DNA of 32,000 nucleotides from Moraxella nasovis (lineage in GTDB: Bacteria; Pseudomonadota; Gammaproteobacteria; Pseudomonadales; Moraxellaceae): contig NZ_CP089976.1 in assembly GCF_022701215.1 (NCBI RefSeq), positions 1,996,237-2,028,236 on the forward strand, written 5' to 3'. Under the pieces are notes generated by a model, which saw only the letters and a program-made list of their open reading frames with translations, was not told the DNA's origin and searched no databases. Of the stretch, positions 3,360 through 31,370 are shown in pieces. The first letter of the stretch is position 1; each line of letters starts with the position of its first letter. A program made the translations under genes and the position numbers.

Positions 3360-4265
3360 TTAAAGTTTAGTTGCTTGTTGTTTTAGACTATTCAAATAAT
3401 TAAACCACAAGCGATAAGCATTGGTTTGTTCAGGTAAGTAATGGTAATGGTCGTAAACACTACGAATACCTGTGACTTGATGCCCTAGCATCATCTCAGC
3501 AACTGTAAGTGACGTAAAACTACTAAATCTAGTTCTTGCTGTGCGTCTTAGGTCGTGAATACACCAAGGCTTCATCACATAGTGATACTGCTGATTTAGG
3601 TGTTGTCTGATACGTAGGGGTATTAAATTAGCCCAAGTGCGGGCTATAGGCTCATTAGCAGATATTTTCTTAATTTGACGATTGCAAAGCAGTAATTCAT
3701 TACCACTTAAAGCAATTAACTCATCAATAACTGCCAAAGATTCGTCCAGTATGGGACGAAAGATAGGCGTGTGGGTACGATACCCCATCTTATGGTTAGA
3801 CTGTGGTACAGTCCAAACCATCTGGATAAAATCAAAATCAGCCTTACGAGCTAATCTTAACTCTCCATTACGACAACCGTACAACAAAAGAAACTGAATG
3901 GCTAGACAGTTACGTTTAAATAAAGCACCATCTTGTAGTGCTTTAAATAACCATATCAATTCTTCATCATTCAGTACTCTTGACTTTTGTGGTTTTACAA
4001 TCCCAAAATCAGCATAAGCGGTTAATTCTTTTAAGGGATTAGTAGTGATATAGCCGTGAGTTACGCACCATTTCATTACCATACGAGCATAGATTAAAAT
4101 TCTGTTGGCTATGCTAGGGGATTTTTGTTTAACTTCATCAATCAAACTGACCCAAAAACTCGTGCTAAGCTTATCTACAGGTATATCACCATATTTTTTT
4201 GAGGGGGGTTGATGTTGGATAAAAATATGGCATGGAGGCGGTAGGTGAAGTGGTTTGATGGGCAT
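3360..4265 (-). CDS. Tyrosine recombinase (phage/P4-family-like integrase) lacking an N-terminal arm-binding region
   Basis: Catalytic signature is present: R in GCRNGELRLARKADF, HDLRRTARTR (HxxR), and LGHQ...VYDHYHY (H and Y). The core-binding-like segment is IANRILIYARMVMKWCVTHGYITTNPLKEL. An in-frame TAA lies 5 codons upstream of the ATG at 4265, so no longer N-terminus is encoded. Confidence 0.85.
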   Translation of the reverse strand: MPIKPLHLPPPCHIFIQHQPPSKKYGDIPVDKLSTSFWVSLIDEVKQKSPSIANRILIYARMVMKWCVTHGYITTNPLKELTAYADFGIVKPQKSRVLNDEELIWLFKALQDGALFKRNCLAIQFLLLYGCRNGELRLARKADFDFIQMVWTVPQSNHKMGYRTHTPIFRPILDESLAVIDELIALSGNELLLCNRQIKKISANEPIARTWANLIPLRIRQHLNQQYHYVMKPWCIHDLRRTARTRFSSFTSLTVAEMMLGHQVTGIRSVYDHYHYLPEQTNAYRLWFNYLNSLKQQATKL

Positions 4266-12831: not shown

Positions 12832-13479
12832 ATGAAAAAATACCTAACCGAAATCGGCATTGTTGCCCCATTAGACCGTGCCAATGTAGATACCGATTTA
12901 ATTATCCCCAAGCAGTTTTTAAAATCCATCAAACGCACAGGGTTTGGTGATAATTTATTTGATGAACTGCGTTATTTGGACGAAGGCTACTTGGGGCAAG
13001 ACATCAATAAACGCCCCAAAAATCCTGATTTTATCTTAAATCAAGACCGCTATGCCAACGCCACCATCTTGCTTGCTCGTGCTAATTTTGGCTGTGGGTC
13101 TAGCCGTGAACACGCACCGTGGGCGTTGAATGAATTTGGGTTTCGCACGGTGATCGCCCCAAGTTTTGCTGATATTTTTTATAATAACTGTTTTAAAAAC
13201 GGAATGCTCCCTGTTATTTTAAAAGAAAGTGAAATTGATGAATTATTCAAAGAATGTTTTGATAATATCGGCTACCAATTAACGGTGGATTTGGCAAATC
13301 AAAAAGTGATTAGCCCAAGTGGTAAAGAATACCATTTTGAAGTTGATGAATTTCGTAAGCATTGCTTGCTTAATGGCTTAGATGATATTGGTTTGACGTT
13401 GCAAAATAGCGATGAAATTCGTGCCTTTGAAGAAAAGGCGAGAGCGGATAGACCTTGGGTGTTTAGAGAGTTAAGATGA
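12832..13479 (+). CDS. leuD: 3-isopropylmalate dehydratase small subunit
   Basis: [31 protein letters not shown] and [18 protein letters not shown] 12832 follows AAGGTG. Confidence 0.95.
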
Positions 13480-14122
13480 ATGAAAAACTTATTTTTATCA
13501 TCTTCTTTGTTTGATGTTGCAAAATTTTTGCCGAGTTTTTTAAGTGGTATTGACAAAAATAAGCAATTTAAAAGCGTGGCTTTTATTGATGTTGCCAGTC
13601 AAATAGAAGAGTATAAAGCCAATATTGACCGTGCCAAATGTGCTTTTGATGAGCTTGGTTTTTTGATTGAAATGATTGACTTTAACCAATCATCTGATGA
13701 CATCAAAAAATCCATTGTTTATTGCGATATGGTTTATGTTGCTGGTGGTAATACGCCTTATTTATTAGAGAAATTAAAAGCCAAAAATTTATTAGAGCAA
13801 TTAAAAGCCAAAAAGATTGATGTTTTTTTTAATTGAATGGATTGGACAAGGCAAACCCTATATCGGTGAGAGTGCAGGCAGTGCCATTTTGGCTCAGGAT
13901 ATTAAATATATTTTACCACTAGAAAATGAAGTAGAGCGATTTGATGATTTTGTTGGATTGGGTGTGATAGATTTTTATCCTTTGGTGCATTTTGGTGATA
14001 AACCATTTGATGAAGCTACCAAAACGATTTTTGATAATTATTCATCAAAAGATAAAATGATAGCATTAAACAATCGGCAAGCATTGATAATCTATGACAA
14101 TAAAATGTTAATTCCATCTTAA
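13480..14122 (+). pseudogene. S51 (peptidase E-like) serine peptidase gene split by a frameshift in a T8 tract
   Basis: ORF A (13480-13836) carries VYVAGGNTPYLL. ORF B (13817-14122, +1 frame) carries YIGESAGSAIL (GxSAG nucleophile elbow). The frames meet at the T8 run 13823-13830, and removing one T fuses them into a product of about 212 aa. Confidence 0.75.
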
Positions 14123-16399: not shown

Positions 16400-17287
16400 A
16401 TGAGTGATCTATTGAGTAAATCTTCTGGACAACGAAACTTAGCAATTGGCATAGCGGTGGCAATACACGGTTTAGTAGGGCTGGGGCTGTCGTTTATGCC
16501 AACAATGACCATCAAACCCATTGAGCCAACTAAACCGCTTGAAATTCAAATGATCTCGATTAATAACGAGCAATCAGAAGAGCCGACAAAACAGATGCCA
16601 AAGCCTGTGGTAGAGCCTAAGGTGACGCCCAAGCCCGTTGTAGAACCCAAGCCTGTAGTTGAGCCTAAGCCTGTGGTAGAACCTAAACCTGTGGTGAAGC
16701 CTGTGCCGACACCAAAAGTGGAAACGCCCAGGCCTGTCATCGCAACGGAAAAACCAGCACCAACCCCTCATGCGGTAGAAAAACCACAACCCAAGCCTGA
16801 AGTAGCCGAGCCTGTAAAAACAGCAACACCAAAGACTGAAAAAGTAGAGCCTATCTCTGCACCACCACAGCCCGAACAAGCACCAGTCAGCTCTAAGCCG
16901 CCAAATGAACCAGCTCCTAAATCTAGTCAGCCAAGTAAGCCTGCTCCAGCTGCTGAGAAAAATACTACGACAGAGCTGACCAATCAAGATTTGACAAATC
17001 AGATTAATGCCAGCTGGAAAAGAAAGCCAAGATTAGAGACGATCGATATAGATGATGTTGGCAAAAGAAGCTTGCTTGGTACGACAGTCAGCACGAATAT
17101 TAAACTTTCCATCGATAAAGATGGCAAAATTACTTCGGTATCTGGAATTGATCTTGGTGACGCACGTCTAAATAAAAAAGTGGAGCATCTGATTCTAGCA
17201 GGGCGATTCCACCCCTTTAAAAATGCTAATGGGCAACCGATGTCAGGGCATGCTAGTTGGACCATCAACATTACTATCCCTGATTAG
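16400..17287 (+). CDS. tonB: Energy transducer TonB
   Basis: N-terminal TM segment with a conserved His (IAVAIHGLVGL). A long Pro-rich spacer includes KPVVEP repeats. The C-terminal TonB-type domain is (...AGRFHPFKNANGQP...). Confidence 0.88.
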   Translation: MSDLLSKSSGQRNLAIGIAVAIHGLVGLGLSFMPTMTIKPIEPTKPLEIQMISINNEQSEEPTKQMPKPVVEPKVTPKPVVEPKPVVEPKPVVEPKPVVKPVPTPKVETPRPVIATEKPAPTPHAVEKPQPKPEVAEPVKTATPKTEKVEPISAPPQPEQAPVSSKPPNEPAPKSSQPSKPAPAAEKNTTTELTNQDLTNQINASWKRKPRLETIDIDDVGKRSLLGTTVSTNIKLSIDKDGKITSVSGIDLGDARLNKKVEHLILAGRFHPFKNANGQPMSGHASWTINITIPD

Positions 17288-17348
17288 GCTATCCCTGATT
17301 AGTTTAGTTTATATCATCATTTAACAATTTAATTTTTAAGGAATTTTT

Positions 17349-17903
17349 ATGAATTTTGCACATTATTGGCAGTACACTGATGCTGTAAGCAAGACACTAT
17401 TTTTTATTTTGTTCGCTCTTTCGGTCTTGTCGTGGGTTGTGGGTATTTTACGCATATTAAAATCTCGTAAACTTGCAAATGACATCGCAAGCGATTTACA
17501 ATCAACCATCACTTCTAAGCAAAACGACTTATCCAAGCTAGAATTTAGTCAGCGTAAAATGGTAGCAGAACAAACCCTACTCCAAAAAATCGCTCAGTAC
17601 CGTTTTGAATCTGAAAAAGGGTTGCCTGTGCTTGGTACGACGGCTGCAATCGCGCCGTTTATTGGGTTATTTGGTACAGTGTGGGGGATTTTTCACGCTT
17701 TACATAGCATTGCTGAAAGCGGTCAGGCAGGCTTAGCTCAAGTGGCAGGACCTGTGGGTGAAGCTCTCATCATGACAGCATTGGGGTTGGCAGTGGCTAT
17801 TCCTGCTGTGGTCTTTTTTAATATCGCTACCCGTCTTAATAAGCGAGCCATGCATGTCGCCACCGATACTGCTCATCTAATTCTTGCTAAAACCGCAAGC
17901 TAG
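17349..17903 (+). CDS. exbB: MotA/TolQ/ExbB-family proton channel (ExbB)
   Basis: LGTTAAIAPFIGLFGTVWGI and GPVGEALIMTALGLAVAIPAVVFFN. It sits between tonB and exbD. Confidence 0.9.
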   Translation: MNFAHYWQYTDAVSKTLFFILFALSVLSWVVGILRILKSRKLANDIASDLQSTITSKQNDLSKLEFSQRKMVAEQTLLQKIAQYRFESEKGLPVLGTTAAIAPFIGLFGTVWGIFHALHSIAESGQAGLAQVAGPVGEALIMTALGLAVAIPAVVFFNIATRLNKRAMHVATDTAHLILAKTAS

Positions 17904-20110: not shown

Positions 20111-21427
20111 TTATTTTAGTATAGCGGCACGCCAAGCTGCATCACCGTCTATGTCGCTTGCAGAAACACGTAAACCATCAGCAAAATCATTTAGACGGCG
20201 AAAGCTGGCTAAGCCTGTGTTAGTCTGATTCTCAGCGTCATAATCGTCCATATTAATCGCCATTTGACCACCTGTCATCGCCAAATAGACTTCTGCTAGA
20301 ATCTCTGAGTCAAGCAAAGCCCCGTGGAATGTACGATCTTGAGTGCCGACGTTTAGCCTGCGTCTTAGGGCGTCAAGGGAGTTTTTTTGACCTGGATACA
20401 GCTGTTTGGCGATGTCTAAGGAATCGGTAACCTTCACCCGCTCACTAAAGTCAGTCAATCCAACCTTGTCAAATTCCATTTTCAAAAATCGCATATCAAA
20501 CGGTGCGTTATGGGCGATAACTTCACTGCCGACCATAAAATCATAGATTGCTTGGGCGACGTCTTTAAACTTTGGTTTATCTTCTAAAAACTCGTTAGAA
20601 ATACCGTGAATGCGAATGACTTCTTCGTCCATTTGTTTATCAGGATTGATATAGACGTGTAGCTGATTGCCTGTAAACTTACGCCCAACCATCTCAATAA
20701 TCCCCACCTCGACAATGCGATCACCGTTTTGATCCTCAAAGCCTGTGGTCTCTGTATCCATAATCAGCTGTCTGTTTGAGCTATTTTGGTTGCTAGGCTT
20801 AGGCAAAATCGCCCAAAAGTCGGCATTGGCTTGGCTGGTTTTGCCATCATAGGCAGGATTTTGGGCGTCATTTGGGCTAACAGCAAAACCTTGTTGGTAC
20901 ACATCTATCGCATGCTCTTGTGGTGGAGCGTCGTCAGGTTTGCCATCAGTTGTTTCATTGGCTTTGATAAGCTTACGCCCAGAGCTTGTCACCCCTAGAT
21001 TTGCCAAGTGATCTGCCTTGGTGTTACCTGCATGACCTGCATGACCCTTGACCCAGCACCACTCAATGGTACGGTTTTGGCGAAGCTCATCAAGCTTTTG
21101 CCACAAGTCAAGGTTGATGACAGATTTGCCATCTGCCTTTTGCCAGTTTTTTTGTTTCCAACCGTCAAGCCATTCACTCATGCCTTGCTTAACGTAATTT
21201 GAGTCCGTCCAAAGTTGTAACGGCACATCACTTGGCGTGTTCTGTAAGGCAACGATTGCTGCCATCAGCTCCATGCGGTTATTGGTCGTGTCTGCATCGC
21301 CACCCCAGATATTCTCAATATTACCATCAGTATGGTGGATGTGAACGCCAAAACCGCCAGCCGCTTGGCTGTTTTTGCCATTGCCTTTACAAGCTCCGTC
21401 GGTATAAGCGATTGTTTGATTTATCAT
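20111..21427 (-). CDS. dnaQ: Fusion protein: RNase HI (N-terminal) plus DNA polymerase III epsilon proofreading exonuclease (C-terminal)
   Basis: RNase H part: IAYTDGACKGNG, NNRMELMAAIVAL, WTDSNYV, WVKGHAGHAGNTKADHLAN. A low-complexity linker of about 70 aa follows. DnaQ part: LIMDTETTGF (Exo I), VIAHNAPFDMRFL (Exo II), HGALLDSEILAEVYLAM (Exo III). Confidence 0.92.
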   Translation of the reverse strand: MINQTIAYTDGACKGNGKNSQAAGGFGVHIHHTDGNIENIWGGDADTTNNRMELMAAIVALQNTPSDVPLQLWTDSNYVKQGMSEWLDGWKQKNWQKADGKSVINLDLWQKLDELRQNRTIEWCWVKGHAGHAGNTKADHLANLGVTSSGRKLIKANETTDGKPDDAPPQEHAIDVYQQGFAVSPNDAQNPAYDGKTSQANADFWAILPKPSNQNSSNRQLIMDTETTGFEDQNGDRIVEVGIIEMVGRKFTGNQLHVYINPDKQMDEEVIRIHGISNEFLEDKPKFKDVAQAIYDFMVGSEVIAHNAPFDMRFLKMEFDKVGLTDFSERVKVTDSLDIAKQLYPGQKNSLDALRRRLNVGTQDRTFHGALLDSEILAEVYLAMTGGQMAINMDDYDAENQTNTGLASFRRLNDFADGLRVSASDIDGDAAWRAAILK

Positions 21428-21563
21428 ATGAGTATCTTTTATCACAAAAGCTTAATTATAATCTATTTAGGCATTTTTGTCATGAAACAAGCCTGTGCAT
21501 TTTTAGACCAACTTTGTTATAATGCCATACGATTTGCCACCACAACCCTTATAAAGCCCCATC

Positions 21564-22571: not shown

Positions 22572-23456
22572 ATGTTAAAACCGATTTTAAAATGGGCTGG
22601 TGGCAAGAGTCAGCTGTTATCTCAAATCCAAAACCGCCTGCCAACTTATGTACAAACCCAAGATTTTTGTTTGGTTGAGCCATTTGTTGGTGGTGGGGCG
22701 GTAAGTTTTTGGGCGTTATCGCATTTTCCTAATCTAAAACGGCTGATTATTAATGACATCAATCACGATCTTATTAATGTCTATCGTGTTATTCGTCAAT
22801 CCGCTGACAGATTGATTGATGTGCTTTTTCATATCCAGCAAGAATATGATAATTTAACTGATTTAGAAAGCAAAAAGCCTTATTATTATGCCAAGCGAGA
22901 TTTATATAACTCTCGTAAGTCTGATAATATTACCCAAGCCGCTTTATTCATTTTTTTAAACAAAGCGGGCTTTAATGGTCTATATCGTGTCAATAAAAAT
23001 AATGAATTTAATGTGCCAATTGGCAGTTACAAAAAACCACAATTTTTAGACAAAGAGCTGATTTATCAATTGCAAAAATACCTAAAAAATGTGGAAATAT
23101 TAACAGGTGATTATGAGCAAATTTTGAATAAACTAGACAATACTCTACCTTGTTTATTTTATATTGATCCTCCCTATCGCCCGCTTAGTAATACATCAAA
23201 CTTTAATCATTATGCTCATCAAGAATTTGATGATAATGAACAGGTTCGTCTAGCACAATTTTGTCGTCAATTAGATAAATTAGGTTATCAATTTTTACTG
23301 AGTAATTCTGACCCCAAAAATAGCAATCCTAATGACAATTTTTTTGATGAACTGTATCAACAGTTTACCATCGAGAGAGTGATGGCGAAACGTGCAATCA
23401 ATGCCAAAGGCGATGGACGGTCGGCGATTAGCGAGATTTTAGTTTATAATTATTAG
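22572..23456 (+). CDS. Dam-family (alpha class) GATC N6-adenine DNA methyltransferase, DpnM / M.MboIA-like
   Basis: [21 protein letters not shown] (FxGxG) and a central IDPPY. It is the first gene of the three-gene cassette. Confidence 0.92.
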
Positions 23457-23464
23457 GAGTGTAT

Positions 23465-24352
23465 ATGAAAGATATTTATGATTCAGCACATTTTGACCTA
23501 CTCATAAGCACTTTAAAAGAAAAGGGCTTGATACAATATGATTATTTTGTAAATTGGGCAAAAGTTTTTGATAATATCACGCCGATTGAAAAAGAATTGA
23601 ATTTATTAAATACAGCAATTGGTAAGGATAATGTTGATGAAGTGCTATTTGATATTTTTAAAACTTATCCAAAAACTATTAAAGTCATTCCTATTTTATT
23701 GGCTATTCGTGATAAATCTATTGAAGTTTTGATAGATAGCTCAAATTTTATTTATAGAAATTTTAACTTTAATGATAAAAACATTGATGATGATAAAATT
23801 CATGGACTAATTGAGCTTCTGCTACAAAGTGGTTTTGTTGAATTGATTAAAAATAAACAAATAAAAAATTTGGTAGATTATTGTATTGGCGTAGAAGTAG
23901 GTCTAGATAGTAATGGACGTAAAAACCGTAGTGGTACATCTATGGAGATACTGGTGGAGTCTTTTGTTGCGTTATTCTGTCATAATCATAATTTAGAATA
24001 TCTCGTACAAGCCAATGCCAAAAAAATTGCGGACGCTTGGGGAATAGAAATACAAATTGATAAAACATCTCGTATTATAGATTTTGTTATAAAAAACGGA
24101 GAGAAATTATATTTTATTGAATGTAATTTTTATAAGGGCGGTGGCTCTAAGCTCAAATCAACCGCAACCGAATATATAGAAATGGCTCGTTTTTGGAAAA
24201 ACCAAGATATTGAATTTATTTGGGTAACAGACGGTGCAGGTTGGGCAGGAACACATAGACCACTAAGAGATTATTTTAATAAGGGTAATATTTTATTGAA
24301 TATACAGATGTTACAAGATGATTATTTAGCAAAAATAATTTTGGATAACTGA
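23465..24352 (+). CDS. Type II restriction endonuclease, DpnII/MboI family (GATC)
   Basis: IGVEVGLDSNGRKNRSGTSME, IDFVIKNGEKLYFIECNFYKGGGSKLKSTA and WVTDGAGW match the blocks I recall from R.DpnII. AGGAG lies 5 nt before ATG 23465. Confidence 0.88.
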   Translation: MKDIYDSAHFDLLISTLKEKGLIQYDYFVNWAKVFDNITPIEKELNLLNTAIGKDNVDEVLFDIFKTYPKTIKVIPILLAIRDKSIEVLIDSSNFIYRNFNFNDKNIDDDKIHGLIELLLQSGFVELIKNKQIKNLVDYCIGVEVGLDSNGRKNRSGTSMEILVESFVALFCHNHNLEYLVQANAKKIADAWGIEIQIDKTSRIIDFVIKNGEKLYFIECNFYKGGGSKLKSTATEYIEMARFWKNQDIEFIWVTDGAGWAGTHRPLRDYFNKGNILLNIQMLQDDYLAKIILDN

Positions 24353-25165
24353 ATGCTATATTTTCAATCTACCGATAAAAATTTTAATTTATATCAAGGC
24401 GATTGTATAAAAATCATGCCAACATTGCAGGCAAATAGCATTGATATGATCTTTGCCGATCCGCCTTATTTTTTATCTAATGATGGTTTGACAGTTAAAG
24501 ATGGTGTGATTCAATCGGTTAATAAAGGCAATTGGGATAAGTTTAGTACAGATGATGAAATTTATCGTTTTACTTATGAATGGTTAAATGAATCTCGGAG
24601 AATTTTAAAAGATAATGGCACAATTTGGATAAGTGGCACACATCATAATATTTTTATGTTAGGGCGTATTTTAGAGCAATTGGGTTTTAAGATATTAAAT
24701 ATGATTACTTGGGAGAAACCAAATCCGCCACCAAATTTCTCATGTCGTTATTTTACTTATTCTGCCGAGTGGATTATTTGGGCAAGAAAATATCCCAAGA
24801 TCCCACATTATTTCAATTATGAGTTAATGAAAAAACTCAATGCTAATAAGCAAGCCAAAGATGTTTGGCGACTGCCTGCGGTGAATAAATGGGAAAAACA
24901 ACAAGGCAGGCACCCAACTCAAAAACCACTAGGGTTGTTATCTCGGATTATTTTGGCCTCTACCCAAGAATATGATATTATTGTAGACCCATTCTCAGGT
25001 TCGGCAACCACAGGGATTGCTGGTGCAATTTTAAATAGAAAATTCATCGGTATTGAATCAAACGATGAATTTTTAGCACTATCTAAAAGGCGTTATATTG
25101 ACTTAACGCCCAACAACAAAACGTCATTAAAACAAAAAATCAGAGAGCAAATCAGTTTAATATGA
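24353..25165 (+). CDS. Second (beta class) N6-adenine DNA methyltransferase, DpnA / M.MboIC-like
   Basis: N-terminal FADPPY and C-terminal DPFSGSATTG (SAM-binding). The start directly abuts the endonuclease stop (TGAATG). Confidence 0.9.
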   Translation: MLYFQSTDKNFNLYQGDCIKIMPTLQANSIDMIFADPPYFLSNDGLTVKDGVIQSVNKGNWDKFSTDDEIYRFTYEWLNESRRILKDNGTIWISGTHHNIFMLGRILEQLGFKILNMITWEKPNPPPNFSCRYFTYSAEWIIWARKYPKIPHYFNYELMKKLNANKQAKDVWRLPAVNKWEKQQGRHPTQKPLGLLSRIILASTQEYDIIVDPFSGSATTGIAGAILNRKFIGIESNDEFLALSKRRYIDLTPNNKTSLKQKIREQISLI

Positions 25166-27996: not shown

Positions 27997-28345
27997 TAAT
28001 ATTTCACTATATTAAGCAAGTATTGCTGGTTGCACTATATTGATAGCTGTATTAATAGTAGTGCAAGCTGTTGCAAATAAACAGGTATGACGCTATCTTA
28101 AGGGGGTGTGATTTTAAAAAAAAGACAAAAATTGTAAATTTTTTTTAAGTTTTGCACCATATTTTTCATGGTTACCTTAATTACCAAACCAAAAATTACC
28201 AAACTAAAGGTGTTCTTATTTTGCTAAGTTTGGATAAAAATTTAGATTTCATTCAGATTGGCTGTAATCAGCTTAAGGTGCTTAGCAATTGGTGTGGGAT
28301 TTACGGCTGGTTTAATACAGCCCCTTATTTATGGCATGGTGTTTT

Positions 28346-28573
28346 ATGCTAAACCAAGATAAAGATAAAATCTTAAATATGATTGACAAAGAAATAAATA
28401 GCAGTTATGTTAATTATCTAAGTAAACAACAGATGAAGGCACTCTTTGAAGGCTTTCAAAAAGACCAATTAACTGATGATGATAAAAAAGACATTGCCAA
28501 CCATATCTTAGCTAATTATCTTGATGATATGCATGAGACAGAAAGACTGATAGATGTCTTATTAAATGAATGA
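28346..28573 (+). CDS. Hypothetical acidic helical protein (75 aa), possible orphan immunity-type gene
   Basis: ATG 28346 overlaps the stop of a possible upstream 43-codon ORF (ATGCTAA). AT-rich. No motif recognised. Confidence 0.5.
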   Translation: MLNQDKDKILNMIDKEINSSYVNYLSKQQMKALFEGFQKDQLTDDDKKDIANHILANYLDDMHETERLIDVLLNE

Positions 28574-28729
28574 CACAAGAGAAAAAAAGATTTGGGCTGT
28601 CATAGCTTTTAGGGTTGTCGTAGGTGGGCGGCTTTTCCTATGGGTTTCAATAAAATTTGACAAAGATAATAGCCTTTAAATTATTTAACTTTAAGTGCTA
28701 AATTTACATTATAAAAATTATCATCTATT

Positions 28730-28972
28730 ATGTTTGAATTTATTGCAGGTATCTTTTCATATCTTGGCTCTGATATAGAAAAAACCAAATCAATAAAAGT
28801 GCAATTATTGATTTCATTATTTTTTGGTTTTTGTATTTTTATTGTCATATGTGTTAAAGAATTTTTCATTAACTCTGATATAAAGCTGATCGCTTTTTCG
28901 CTCATATTATCGCTTTTGGTTTCAATATTTTTCTTTATTTGTTTTTTGATTTCTAATTTATTCAAAAAATAA
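28730..28972 (+). CDS. Small polytopic membrane protein (80 aa), possible orphan bacteriocin-immunity gene
   Basis: Two to three hydrophobic segments (LLISLFFGFCIFIVICV, LIAFSLILSLLVSIFFFICFLI). It has the same orientation as all other island genes. A competing antisense ORF (28681-28965) exists, so the call is tentative. Confidence 0.4.
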   Translation: MFEFIAGIFSYLGSDIEKTKSIKVQLLISLFFGFCIFIVICVKEFFINSDIKLIAFSLILSLLVSIFFFICFLISNLFKK

Positions 28973-29037
28973 TTTTTTAGGTTTATCTGTTATAGCTCTA
29001 AGCTTTTTATTGATACAATATGCGGTTTAAATATTTG

Positions 29038-29124
29038 ATGAAAAAACTCGTTTTATACTTATCTTGCGGATTTGTACTATCCGCCCACACCCACTTACTG
29101 CCCCAACCAAAGATAATATCCTAA
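29038..29124 (+). CDS. Micro-ORF (28 aa) MKKLVLYLSCGFVLSAHTHLLPQPKIIS; signal-peptide-like or small hydrophobic peptide
   Basis: ATG start. The C-terminal AHTHLLPQPKIIS part lies in the conserved module and is identical in the paralogous micro-ORF at 30983-31072. The N-terminal halves differ in nucleotides, but both are MKK plus a hydrophobic stretch. Confidence 0.35.
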   Translation: MKKLVLYLSCGFVLSAHTHLLPQPKIIS

Positions 29125-29207: not shown

Positions 29208-29211
29208 CAAT

Positions 29212-29292
29212 GATAACTGCTCCAAGATGATAATCATTCCACCTATCATCACCTTGGACAGTTATCGGCTATCAGTTTGACTGATAGTTTTT
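29212..29292 (+). promoter_or_regulatory. Structured leader, copy 1: a long hairpin containing a Fur-box-like core, then a terminator-like hairpin with a U-tract
   Basis: Hairpin 1 (29212-29266) pairs GATAACTG/CAGTTATC, TCCAAG/CTTGGA and ATGATA/TATCAT, about 20 bp in total. Hairpin 2 (29269-29287) pairs CTATCAGT-ttg-ACTGATAG and is followed by T5. ATGATAATCATT lies at 29227-29238. Confidence 0.6.
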
Positions 29293-29322
29293 CATAACAT
29301 CAATTTAGTTAAGGAAAACTTT

Positions 29323-29409
29323 ATGAAAAAGCTATCAATCCTAGCACTAACAATAAGTGCTACCGTAGCCACTGCTCCTGCATTTGCAAAAGACAGCAAC
29401 CAATTATAA
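29323..29409 (+). CDS. uORF encoding only a Sec-type signal peptide: MKKLSILALTISATVATAPAFA/KDSNQL (28 aa)
   Basis: This is the best Shine-Dalgarno of the cassette (AAGGA 7 nt before the ATG). It shows the canonical n/h/c regions with an AFA cleavage motif, then a stop 6 codons later. It is conserved in all three copies. Confidence 0.55.
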   Translation: MKKLSILALTISATVATAPAFAKDSNQL

Positions 29410-29759: not shown

Positions 29760-30032
29760 ATGATAATTATTTATATTGTGGCAACTTTGGGATTATTTAT
29801 TGGTTGGATTAAAAATACCTACCTGTTTAAAGGTAAGTTGTGGCTAGATAGGATATTTCTTTTAATATCAACTTCATTGCTAATATGGTGTTGTGTAAGT
29901 ATTACAAAATATGTCAATCATCTTAGCGATAATTTGGCTTTTATTCATTTGGCTTGTTATTTTGGATATCTTTTATTTTTGACTGTGGTTTTTTATAAAT
30001 TGGTAAAGCTTTTTGATAAGAAATTTTCATGA
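29760..30032 (+). CDS. Putative immunity protein 1 (90 aa, about 3 TM segments)
   Basis: It lies immediately downstream of bacteriocin 1. Hydrophobic segments: IIIYIVATLGLFIGWI, IFLLISTSLLIWCCVSI, LACYFGYLLFLTVVFY. Confidence 0.65.
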   Translation: MIIIYIVATLGLFIGWIKNTYLFKGKLWLDRIFLLISTSLLIWCCVSITKYVNHLSDNLAFIHLACYFGYLLFLTVVFYKLVKLFDKKFS

Positions 30033-30091
30033 AAATATCCTTATTACTTTTACCTTTTATAACAACCATCGCCACGCCGACCTACCCCTAA
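30029..30091 (+). CDS. Micro-ORF (20 aa) MKISLLLLPFITTIATPTYP
   Basis: The ATG overlaps the immunity-1 stop (ATGA). It is positionally equivalent to the micro-ORFs at 29038 and 30983. Confidence 0.25.
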   Translation: MKISLLLLPFITTIATPTYP

Positions 30092-30165
30092 CGGCTGATG
30101 ATATTTTGGCGGATAAAAATCGTTTTAAATAAAATAATTAACCAAACAAATCTTTACCATACTTA

Positions 30166-30195
30166 TTGACAAAGTACAAGTGTTCTTAGTAATAT
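30166..30195 (+). promoter_or_regulatory. Cassette promoter, copy 2
   Basis: TTGACA (30166-30171), 18 nt, then TAATAT (30190-30195). Confidence 0.65.
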
Positions 30196-30199
30196 CAAT

Positions 30200-30281
30200 G
30201 ATAACTGCTCCAAGATGATAATCATTCAACCTATCATCACCTTGGATAGTTATCGGCTATCAGTTTTGATTGATAGTTTTT
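30200..30281 (+). promoter_or_regulatory. Structured leader, copy 2
   Basis: It forms the same two hairpins. Stem differences from copy 1 are C-to-T changes giving G.U pairs (TAGTTATC, ATTGATAG). ATGATAATCATT lies at 30215-30226 and a T5 run at 30277-30281. Confidence 0.6.
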
Positions 30282-30306
30282 CACAAAGTCAATTAAGGAA
30301 AACTCT

Positions 30307-30387
30307 ATGAAAAAGTTATCAATCCTAGCACTAACAATAAGTGCTACCGTAGCCACTACTCCTGCATTTGCAAAAGATAGCGACTAA
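30307..30387 (+). CDS. uORF encoding only a signal peptide: MKKLSILALTISATVATTPAFA/KDSD (26 aa)
   Basis: It has the same Shine-Dalgarno and signal peptide as copy 1. The stop lies 13 nt upstream of the ATG of toxin 2. Confidence 0.55.
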   Translation: MKKLSILALTISATVATTPAFAKDSD

Positions 30388-30400
30388 TTATAGCACTGCC

Positions 30401-30667
30401 ATGACGGATAGCCAAATGCAGGAAACACAAGGGGCAAGATTTCCAAAATTTATTAGCAATGTAAGAGTGGATGGTCCAGATAAAGGATTTCGACAACATA
30501 GCAATGGCAGAATATTTCAAATAAGGTATGGCAATACCCCAAAAACTAGAACGCCTGTATTTAGGTTAGATCCCCATGACAACCCATCTCCAACCAAATT
30601 GCATATGCACATTGCACCAGATATCAATGCACATAGACCTTGGAATGCACCTTGGAAAAAATTTTAG
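30401..30667 (+). CDS. Toxin precursor 2: MTDSQMQETQGA leader plus a 76-aa basic, His-containing domain of unknown fold
   Basis: The leader is identical to copy 1. The mature part is RFPKFISNVRVDGPDKGFRQHSNGRIFQIRYGN...FRLDPHDNPSPTKLHMHIAPDINAHRPWNAPWKKF, which is not Gly-rich or hydrophobic. An alternative TTG start lies at 30368. Confidence 0.65.
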   Translation: MTDSQMQETQGARFPKFISNVRVDGPDKGFRQHSNGRIFQIRYGNTPKTRTPVFRLDPHDNPSPTKLHMHIAPDINAHRPWNAPWKKF

Positions 30668-30676
30668 GTACTATAA

Positions 30677-30937
30677 ATGAAATATGATAATTTTATCAAT
30701 AGTTTGAATGATTATTTGCATGGTCGTATTGATGGGAGATTATTATTAAATGCTTGGCAGGACTGCCCAGAAGAATTAAAACCCATTTACTATCAATTAT
30801 TTCATTTGATTGGCGATGAAGACATACGAAAAAAGGACGTGGATTACAAAAATTTTCAACTATCCTTGGTTAACAATGTAATTGGATTATTAAAAGCAGG
30901 TGATATTGAAAAATTACAAGGTATCAGCTTAATATAG
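30677..30937 (+). CDS. Putative immunity protein 2 (86 aa, soluble, acidic)
   Basis: It starts 9 nt after the toxin-2 stop. It has no signal peptide or TM segment. Its size and position resemble immunity proteins of enzymatic bacteriocins. Confidence 0.6.
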   Translation: MKYDNFINSLNDYLHGRIDGRLLLNAWQDCPEELKPIYYQLFHLIGDEDIRKKDVDYKNFQLSLVNNVIGLLKAGDIEKLQGISLI

Positions 30938-30982
30938 AGCTGATGATAAAGTAAAAGTTATTTAAAAATTTTGGGAAATTTT

Positions 30983-31072
30983 GTGAAAAAATCGTTTTTA
31001 TCTTTTTTAGTGTTAGGTTTTATAACCACCGCCCACACCCACTTACTGCCCCAACCAAAGATAATATCCTAA
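30983..31072 (+). CDS. Micro-ORF (29 aa) (M)KKSFLSFLVLGFITTAHTHLLPQPKIIS
   Basis: GTG start. The C-terminal 13 residues are identical to the 29038 micro-ORF. Confidence 0.3.
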   Translation: MKKSFLSFLVLGFITTAHTHLLPQPKIIS

Positions 31073-31172: not shown

Positions 31173-31176
31173 CAAT

Positions 31177-31258
31177 GATAACTGCTCCAAGATGATAATC
31201 ATTCCACCTATCATCACCTTGGGTAGTTATCGGCTATCAGTTTTGACTGATAGTTTTT
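31177..31258 (+). promoter_or_regulatory. Structured leader, copy 3
   Basis: It forms the same two hairpins. CTTGGGTAGTTATC replaces CTTGGACAGTTATC, giving two wobble-compatible changes. ATGATAATCATT lies at 31192-31203 and a T5 run at 31254-31258. Confidence 0.6.
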
Positions 31259-31283
31259 CACAAAGTCAATTAAGGAAAACTCT

Positions 31284-31370
31284 ATGAAAAAGTTATCAAT
31301 CCTAGCACTAACAATAAGTGCTACCGTAGCCACTGCTTCTGCATTTGCAAAAAACAGCAACCAATTATAA
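31284..31370 (+). CDS. uORF encoding only a signal peptide: MKKLSILALTISATVATASAFA/KNSNQL (28 aa)
   Basis: Same architecture as copies 1 and 2. Confidence 0.55.
   Translation: MKKLSILALTISATVATASAFAKNSNQL

Follow-up and report, generated by a model that had tools for sequence, protein, structure and literature searches.

A cassette in a Moraxella array pairs a candidate polymorphic-toxin domain with a soluble acidic partner and has a frameshifted export part

The nap island of Neisseria, which encodes a C39 peptidase (NapP), a FapF homolog (NapF), and peptides with a GG motif (PMC11798529), is the closest described system to the locus analyzed here. In Pseudomonas, the periplasmic C39 peptidase FapD is needed for secretion via the trimeric FapF barrel, and its cleavage target is unknown (PMC5557850). 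Neisseria also possesses Sec-dependent polymorphic toxins, the MafB proteins (PMC4287609). Here we describe a putative toxin gene and its partner gene in a 32-kb stretch of Moraxella nasovis DNA with 39% GC (in the following called the window), which ends in an array of at least three cassettes sharing a 276-nt 5′ repeat (D1). The two genes belong to cassette 2: an open reading frame (ORF) of 88 codons in total, starting with the ATG at 30401 (30401-30667, plus strand), is followed by a gene for an 86-aa protein (30677-30937, plus strand). These coordinates and the content of the ORFs agree with the initial annotation, which had proposed a microcin-type leader coupled to a 76-aa domain and a soluble partner. 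We consider it likely that cassette 2 carries a toxin/immunity module of the polymorphic type, which in relatives would be exported by the Sec system, a C39 peptidase, and an outer-membrane barrel, and whose export part is broken in the window.

With polymorphic toxins, as known from Rhs/YD proteins in the Zhang/Aravind framework and from MafB, the locus has in common a small variable C-terminal toxin occurring on unrelated delivery modules, an immunity gene immediately downstream, orphan and truncated cassettes, and immunity families that are specific for subclades. It differs from them in that the toxin domain is without a Pfam or other library model and in that the predicted delivery involves a Sec signal peptide and a double-glycine-type propeptide instead of an Rhs cage, CdiA, or the DUF1020 domain of MafB. 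The nap island, with the peptides NapA-C and the immunity-like NapI, shows a similar arrangement of a free-standing C39 peptidase and a FapF-like protein flanking short genes with GG motifs and an immunity-like gene; it is low in GC like the Moraxella island, and homopolymer tracts in the 5′ part of the nap genes remove the leader, comparable to the window cassettes (PMC11798529). However, the Nap peptides are cationic helices of 16-36 aa that are reported to drive autolysis, whereas the Moraxella cargo is a predicted folded Rhs-type toxin of 76 aa with a soluble immunity protein. Moreover, the precursors from Moraxella and other bacteria carry an explicit Sec signal peptide, unlike nap, and the likeness to NapP and NapF is one of description. 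Sec-exported substrates, a periplasmic C39 peptidase essential for secretion, and a dedicated outer-membrane barrel are features of the Fap system that the proposed route would share, but Fap cargo consists of amyloid subunits without canonical C39 sites, which obscures where FapD cuts, whereas the cargo described here has a canonical GG-type site.

The toxin domain, its relatives, and its partner

The toxin ORF starts with the double-glycine-type cleavage motif MTDSQMQETQGA (30401-30436; repeat D4), which is all that survives of the propeptide, and continues with the 76-aa toxin domain (30437-30667, with the stop codon at 30665-30667). For the mature domain we computed a mass of 8.96 kDa, an isoelectric point (pI) of 11.3, and a grand average of hydropathy (GRAVY) of -1.05. 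It contains four glycines and five histidines at positions 21, 47, 56, 58, and 66, among them those of the HxH motif in KLHMHI and of NAHRPW. These values bear out the initial description of the payload as basic, neither rich in glycine nor hydrophobic, and endowed with these His motifs. The reading frame of the domain is intact, with no internal stop codon, and compared to the ortholog from Moraxella ovis it shows 35 synonymous and 12 non-synonymous changes, with a ratio of non-synonymous to synonymous substitution rates (dN/dS) of 0.04. The partner gene is likewise intact and has a dN/dS of 0.15 relative to its M. ovis ortholog. Judged by the comparison with M. ovis, both genes of cassette 2 are under purifying selection and are genuine coding sequences.

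Only two close homologs of the toxin came up in a word-indexed search, namely a 149-aa protein of M. ovis (90% identity) and an orphan copy from a short contig of metagenomic origin. Exhaustive searching with an HMMER profile added 24 more distant relatives to this rare family, and the toxin domain was C-terminal in 24 of 24. One type of carrier is represented by Rhs/YD proteins (P0024, P0026, P0015, P0010, P0013, P0017, and P0019), where the toxin begins right after the PxxxxDPxGL end of the core; Pfam models RHS_repeat, RHS, or TEN_YD-shell match four of them (P0024, P0026, P0015, and P0017). Scans of genomes and metagenomes revealed further Rhs fusions, including a 1444-aa ORF. The other type is small and composed of a Sec signal peptide, a propeptide, and the toxin (P0006, P0009, P0011, P0018, P0021, and P0023). 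The propeptide of these proteins ends with ..(L/M)(S/T)xxEMxxTxG(A/E), and the same motif is present in relatives from other phyla. Toxin copies with Sec signal peptide and propeptide were found in Saprospiraceae, Sulfurovum, Sulfurimonas, a Thiosymbion symbiont, and unassigned metagenome contigs. A third arrangement is seen in P0016 (548 aa; JGI metagenome, L007 613-2265), where a signal peptide, a C39 peptidase domain, the propeptide motif LSQQEMMETVGA, and the toxin domain are joined in one protein. This fusion of peptidase and substrate argues that such peptidases process this propeptide motif. Within the family alignment, residues R43, D45, H56, and H58 are invariant, and G13, R25, P40, F42, P50, L55, and H66 are nearly so.

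The partner gene begins 9 nt past the toxin stop codon and encodes a soluble acidic protein (calculated mass 10.0 kDa, pI 5.2), the putative immunity protein, with a conserved HL(I/V)xDEDIRK motif. Its highest Kyte-Doolittle mean over 19 residues is only 0.99, compared to 2.1 and 3.1 for the partners in cassettes 1 and 3; accordingly, the cassette 2 partner has no transmembrane segment or signal peptide, as the initial annotation had stated, whereas the partners of cassettes 1 and 3 are membrane proteins. A word-indexed search with the partner returned only the protein of the window itself. Homologs are nonetheless located directly 3′ of the toxin in four other loci, namely M. ovis (L001), the orphan metagenome contig (L003), a JGI contig (L005), and Moraxella sp. 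VT-16-12 (L011). Toxin and 86-aa-type partner are thus kept together in five loci, including the window; in VT-16-12 the toxin is truncated. As both genes are under selection and the pair recurs across loci, the pairing exceeds chance. Other subclades of the toxin have small soluble partners from three or more different families: a family of 138-160 aa in Campylobacterota and the Thiosymbion locus, a family of 118-157 aa (..AYQDGG..WW) following the Rhs copies, and at least one further family. Inspection of their sequences revealed no N-terminal signal peptide in these alternative partners, nor did they match Pfam. Partners without a signal peptide fit a toxin that is neutralized in the cytoplasm.

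The same C-terminal domain occurs on different N-terminal modules (Rhs/YD, Sec signal peptide plus GG propeptide, and C39 fusion), and the gene directly downstream co-varies with it. A C-terminal domain common to Rhs proteins and another delivery module, together with a constant partner gene, is the pattern of polymorphic toxins. The comparative evidence from Rhs tips, Sec-leader carriers, and the linked partner therefore supports, in kind, the proposed toxin/immunity pair, here as one of the polymorphic-toxin type. Scans with Pfam, NCBIfam, PHROGs, and PADLOC found no model covering the toxin domain of any family member, Pfam searches of toxin and partner at E values up to 10 gave no match, and the 86-aa protein matched neither Pfam nor NCBIfam at E values up to 10, including the colicin/pyocin immunity families PF01320 and PF09204. 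All named database entries for relatives of the toxin read "hypothetical protein." These profile searches agree with the initial annotation, which could place neither protein in a known family. Both families are new, within a known kind of system.

Some members of the toxin family (P0004, P0009, P0016, P0021, and P0023) have a hydrophobic or Gly-rich segment of 25-60 aa between the G-A site and the toxin domain. The window copy is without this segment, which resembles a module of pore-former-type bacteriocins and may serve uptake or membrane insertion. A decayed cassette is present in Moraxella sp. VT-16-12 (L011, 7798-8920); it consists of a signal peptide, the last ~37 residues of the toxin, an intact immunity homolog, and a truncated FapF-like gene, and is followed by an ORF that by the look of its sequence resembles a tyrosine recombinase. 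In M. ovis (L001), a basic leaderless ORF of 96 aa at 12895-13185 ends with ..YTHYHPNPRNGSHIWYGKPR, and its HxH..H motif recalls the cassette 2 toxin. Its partner at 13259-13630 has 123 aa; both proteins are soluble, and neither matched any library.

Putative export genes in relatives and the export part of cassette 2

The M. ovis ortholog of the toxin (P0001) contains a Sec signal peptide, a propeptide, and the toxin in a single frame (MKKLSILALTATIATAPAFA-ETTVYQTIPSTTPSVELSTQPIQATDLSFAFDDTQNLQAVAMTDSQMQETEGA-RFPKF...). The array in this species (CP011158, ~62-83 kb) consists of seven cassettes, which are followed by a barrel gene and a C39 gene. The product of the barrel gene has 312 aa, including a signal peptide, and reaches 24 bits with the barrel model Phenol_MetA_deg (cut-off 22 bits). 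Its best match in NCBIfam is FapF (E 1.6e-7), a weak one with 30.5 bits compared to a cut-off of 700 bits. Since the alignment to the 420-position FapF model starts only at position 121, the N-terminal region of FapF appears to be absent. The C39 peptidase (17231-17881; 216 aa) has a signal peptide of its own and best matches FapD (E 2.7e-19) and FilB; with the FapD model it scores 69 bits at an equivalog cut-off of 330. Both proteins of M. ovis thus differ from Fap proteins in scoring far below the equivalog cut-offs, and the barrel is shorter. No gene for an ATP-binding cassette (ABC) exporter was found in the M. ovis array.

Genes of the barrel or C39 type also flank the toxin in L005, L009, L012, L017, and L030. 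A free-standing C39 peptidase with a Sec signal peptide is encoded beside the substrate genes in M. ovis, L005, L009, and L030. In a metagenome-assembled genome of Saprospiraceae the order is barrel, toxin, insertion sequence, C39, and in Sulfurovum the toxin, immunity, and barrel genes lie together. By their gene content, loci of the Moraxella type likely represent Sec-dependent export of the FapD/FapF-like (Nap-like) kind. The "microcin-type leader" of the initial annotation has to be reinterpreted in this respect: the double-glycine-type motif is present, but it is not a stand-alone leader served by an ABC exporter, because in intact relatives it forms the end of a propeptide behind a Sec signal peptide.

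In the window, this arrangement is disrupted. Alignment of the DNA with M. ovis showed that all three cassettes contain one extra base directly after the signal-peptide cleavage site (GCATTTGCAAAAG/A...). The base follows GCATTTGCA and lies in an A-run (A4G or A6) just past the AFA cleavage site; due to its presence the signal peptide stops after 26-28 codons and the remainder is in the +1 frame. What is left are mini-ORFs of the pattern MKKLSILALTISATVAT..AFA at 29323-29409, 30307-30387, and 31284-31370. The mini-ORF of cassette 2 (plus strand) encodes only a Sec-type signal peptide (MKKLSILALTISATVATTPAFA-KDSD*), is preceded by a Shine-Dalgarno motif (AAGGA at 30295), and is +1 out of frame with the toxin ORF. 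In cassette 1, a second difference of 4 nt returns the sequence to frame 0, but an in-frame TAA remains. Relative to cassette 3, cassette 2 also lacks 69 nt (23 codons) encoding IPTT..DLSFAFDDSQNLQAV; the deleted propeptide box DLSFAFDD..NLQAV is conserved across phyla. Whereas the M. ovis ortholog and the relatives from other phyla are putative substrates with a Sec signal peptide, as in Fap/Nap-type systems, the window copy is not. As its signal peptide is frameshifted off and 23 codons of its propeptide are missing, the toxin of the window is probably not exported by the Sec route.

The ATG at 30401 is located 13 nt past the stop codon of the mini-ORF and is not preceded by a Shine-Dalgarno motif; the AAGGA motifs ahead of start codons in the array are solely those of the signal-peptide mini-ORFs. 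The toxin of cassette 2 may therefore be produced at a low level by re-initiation after the mini-ORF stop, or it may not be produced. Among the proteins recorded for this genome are the immunity protein and the product of cassette 1 but not the toxin products of 88 and 99 aa. Most likely, cassette 2 is silent or decaying, with an immunity gene that is still of use. The extra base in all three cassettes may be a sequencing artefact, act as an on/off switch, or stem from shared decay that gene conversion has spread. Programmed +1 frameshifting at GCA-AAA-G/A by re-pairing of tRNA-Lys is formally possible, but it is not favored because no stimulatory element was found and cassette 1 would need a second event.

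For the intact system we propose the following course. The precursor would consist of a Sec signal peptide, a propeptide of ~50 aa with a double-glycine-type end (...DLSFAFDD..NLQAVAMTDSQMQETEGA), and the toxin. Sec would carry it into the periplasm, a periplasmic FapD-like C39 peptidase would cut after GA (G-A/E), and the FapF-like barrel in the outer membrane would let the mature toxin out. After uptake by neighboring bacteria, the toxin would attack RNA, or else a different nucleic acid or nucleotide substrate, in the cytoplasm, presumably with an active site formed by R43, D45, H56, H58, and H66 on one face of a four-stranded sheet. The acidic 86-aa protein would be the cognate immunity protein in the cytoplasm.

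Predicted structure and chemistry of the toxin domain and alternative readings

The initial annotation had suggested profile searches and structure prediction for the 76-aa domain. These led to a confident model but to no fold or family match. With an alignment of 26 sequences, AlphaFold reached a predicted local distance difference test score (pLDDT) of 85.6 and a predicted template modeling score (pTM) of 0.70; the 26 sequences were needed, as the pLDDT was only 39 with an alignment of three. The model shows a short helix, a strand, a second helix, and then antiparallel strands at 27-31, 39-46, 55-59, and 62-68, the first two of which agree with the beta-like segments noted from the sequence. 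From the alternation within strands, Q28, R30, R43, D45, H56, H58, and H66 are predicted to lie on one face of the sheet. The data support a folded domain, not a pore-forming peptide, and the invariant Arg, Asp, and HxH residues together with a partner of the cytoplasmic type fit an enzyme acting in the cytoplasm. Nuclease colicins and pyocins (E3, E5, E9, and D) similarly combine a basic toxin domain and, from a gene right behind it, a soluble, acidic immunity protein of ~85 aa. They differ from cassette 2 in having receptor-binding and translocation domains and another secretion route, and no sequence similarity to them was detected with Pfam at E values up to 10 or, for PDB, with the toxin profiles.

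Foldseek searches of the model against PDB and BFVD gave a best E value of ~1 and query-normalized TM-scores of at most 0.45 among the matches listed. The only sequence match of the toxin profiles in PDB was the histidine-triad hairpin of aprataxin over 23 residues (E 0.22 for the full profile and 0.015 when the profile covered the domain only), where FRLGYHAIPSMSHVHLHV was aligned with PVFRLDYHxNPSPSKLHFHI. Comparison of the toxin profile by hhalign with reference sequences resulted in probabilities of 1.1% for RNase Sa, 0.2% for barnase, 0.3% for RelE, and ~1% or less for HINT1 and FHIT; in these alignments the LHxH motif of the toxin faced the HIT motif, and DGP..NGRIFQIR was matched to the RNase Sa stretch DGP..DGVVFQNRE. 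As Foldseek, hhalign, and Pfam searches remained empty, an assignment to a fold or family is not possible. Several candidates were rejected. The predicted layout of helices followed by a four-strand meander is, in general terms, compatible with the helix-on-sheet fold of barnase/RNase Sa (PF00545) and RelE-like BECR enzymes, but of the catalytic Glu, Arg, and His the Glu is absent, hhalign probabilities did not exceed 1.1%, and neither Pfam nor Foldseek gave a match. The HIT superfamily was dropped because only xLHxHxx is present instead of HxHxHxx, hhalign gave ~1% or less, and Foldseek found no HIT fold. For M23 peptidases (HxH), ADP-ribosyltransferases, deaminases, and HNH nucleases, the defining residues are absent or not conserved in the family alignment. 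A periplasmic target is also disfavored by the lack of signal peptides in the immunity proteins.

Our best guess for the chemistry, a tentative one, is a metal-independent RNase or another nuclease, because the domain is small, very basic, and of helix-plus-sheet type, exposes His, Arg, and Asp on an open face, and has an acidic immunity protein with presumed neutralization in the cytoplasm. It is rather unlikely that the toxin is instead a zinc hydrolase using H56, H58, and H66 (for example a DNase or phosphoesterase) or a HIT-like nucleotide hydrolase or transferase using the LHxH strand. The HxH and the additional His on neighboring strands do resemble three-His metal sites, as established for the structure of carbonic anhydrase, and the aprataxin hairpin is the sole PDB sequence match. 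However, that match is local and borderline, the hhalign values for HINT1 and FHIT are as low as stated above, Foldseek returned neither a HIT nor a metallo-hydrolase fold, the predicted topology is without the long helix of the HIT fold, and where the first His of the triad would be, the toxin family has K, R, T, S, or a further residue other than His. That the domain represents an undescribed enzymatic fold and would make the toxin the first cargo both soluble and active in the cytoplasm on a barely recognized cross-phylum bacteriocin route (Sec, GG propeptide, FapD-type C39 peptidase, and FapF) seems plausible to us, with the balance slightly on the negative side.

Other readings concern the state and the purpose of the locus. 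Conceivably, though we give it less than an even chance, cassette 2 is a relic in which the toxin is an untranslated pseudogene and the immunity gene alone protects against related strains (orphan immunity, or cheater). The +1 frameshift in three of three cassettes, the deletion of 23 codons, the recording of the immunity protein but not of the 88-aa and 99-aa products, the truncated toxin beside an intact immunity gene in VT-16-12, and the truncated leader of the orphan copy in L003 all agree with a relic. Yet the toxin domain is free of internal stops with its dN/dS of 0.04, re-initiation at ATG 30401 is possible, and changing one base of the A-run would be enough to bring back the fusion in cassettes 2 and 3. 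This reading overlaps with the toxin/immunity module that we favor, the sole difference being whether any toxin is made. A classical class II microcin appears improbable, in which the 88-aa ORF would be the full precursor and its 12-residue double-glycine leader would be cut off during one-step export by an ABC transporter with an N-terminal C39 domain encoded elsewhere in the genome. Like MccV and other class II microcins, cassette 2 encodes a product of less than 10 kDa with an adjacent immunity gene and a double-glycine-type leader, here with the pattern -12, -7, -4, -2/-1, and Moraxella catarrhalis possesses an ABC-type bacteriocin locus, mcbABCI (PMC2761928). In contrast to such microcins, no gene for an ABC exporter or a membrane fusion protein (MFP) occurs in the 32-kb window or the M. 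ovis array, the ortholog carries a Sec signal peptide ahead of a longer propeptide, the peptidases of relatives are free-standing with signal peptides, the strong Shine-Dalgarno motif precedes the signal-peptide mini-ORF and not ATG 30401, the cargo is not hydrophobic or rich in Gly, and its immunity protein is soluble. Still more improbable is a self-directed or signaling role, like that of the Nap peptides in promoting autolysis of the producer. It would agree with the closest described gene set, the nap island with NapP and NapF, which was reported to mediate autolysis, its mature peptides having no antimicrobial activity (PMC11798529). Against it stand the dedicated downstream partner gene with every copy, the diversified cassette arrays and orphan immunity genes typical of competition loci, and the presence of the same domain at the tips of Rhs proteins. 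Rhs systems are established antibacterial effectors. The favored toxin/immunity module with broken export has points against it, too. Toxicity, binding, and secretion are deduced entirely from comparison, and no fold or family match in Foldseek searches of PDB and BFVD or in hhalign backs any particular chemistry. No module for receptor binding or translocation is apparent in the mature protein, leaving entry into target cells unexplained; the window contains only remnants and no intact FapF-like or C39 gene; and the same +1 shift in three cassettes could mark a regulated state instead of decay.

If confirmed, the pair would extend the repertoire of polymorphic toxins by a new toxin family and one or more new immunity families, and the four invariant residues and the confident model would make mutagenesis and structural work straightforward. 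The combination of an Rhs-type warhead with Sec/C39/barrel export is an unusual variant. It would mean that Rhs warheads can be repackaged as free, diffusible, secreted toxins of microcin size (9 kDa), and one would have to ask how a domain so small gets across the two membranes of a target cell. The loci would also supply the natural substrates missing in the Fap field, with canonical GG-type sites for periplasmic C39 peptidases. They would link FapD/FapF amyloid secretion, Neisseria nap, and bacteriocin arrays of Moraxella, Campylobacterota, Bacteroidota, and sulfur-oxidizing Gammaproteobacteria, which together resemble a single export route, dependent on Sec and independent of ABC transporters, with a readable cleavage motif; what periplasmic C39 peptidases cut would thereby become directly testable. 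Since M. ovis and related species colonize the eyes and airways of ruminants, strain competition by such toxins would be of veterinary relevance.

The cassette array and neighboring genes

Each cassette of the window is composed, in this order, of a promoter-like site, a leader with two hairpins, a Shine-Dalgarno motif with the signal-peptide mini-ORF, a MTDSQMQETQGA-type motif with the payload, the partner gene, and a remnant of a barrel gene. In cassette 2, a sigma-70-like promoter (TTGACA, 18 nt, TAATAT) lies at 30166-30195 on the plus strand within the D1 repeat; it is also present in cassette 1 (29178) and cassette 3 (31143). The conserved 5′ leader follows at 30196-30306 (plus strand) and recurs at 29208-29322 and 31173-31283 and in M. 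ovis (L001, 13888-14000), where the other cassettes have a different upstream region in its place. The leader forms a long imperfect hairpin directly followed by a 10-bp hairpin and a T-run, resembling an attenuator or terminator, and ends with the Shine-Dalgarno motif AAGGAAA. Folding with M. ovis in RNAalifold yielded 30 pairs at -26.8 kcal/mol with one compensatory pair, and a search of Rfam with the leader gave no match.

The 3′ edge of cassette 2 is formed by a degenerate 5′ remnant of a gene for a FapF-like outer-membrane protein (30971-31072, plus strand), which is tied by repeats D3 and D6 to similar sequences at 29020-29124 and 30030-30132. The best-kept remnant (30037-30129) reads HADLPLTADDILADKNRFK and matches the N-terminus of the 312-aa M. 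ovis protein in tblastn with an E value of 8e-7. The remnants, one per cassette end, are frameshifted or degenerate and encode a signal peptide and ADLPLTADDILADKNRFK. As 5′ fragments of the barrel gene end each cassette, the pile-up suggests that cassettes were inserted by recombination at the start of the barrel gene and that older ones were pushed upstream. Orphan modules accumulate likewise in other polymorphic-toxin loci.

Upstream of cassette 1 (28150-28972), a partial repeat of the promoter region (28195-28218) is accompanied by two partner-like ORFs without a toxin, one for a soluble acidic protein of 80 aa (28331-28573) and one for a membrane protein of 80 aa (28730-28972), which are possibly orphan immunity genes. 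Further 5′ of the array are a gene for a TonB-dependent receptor and the genes of a restriction-modification system of the DpnII type, which includes two methylases (22572-25165). The remainder of the window includes an RNase H-exonuclease (RNase_T) fusion protein (20111-21445), a gene of the phage-integrase family (3360-4265), and a 961-aa ORF without a Pfam match (31-2916).

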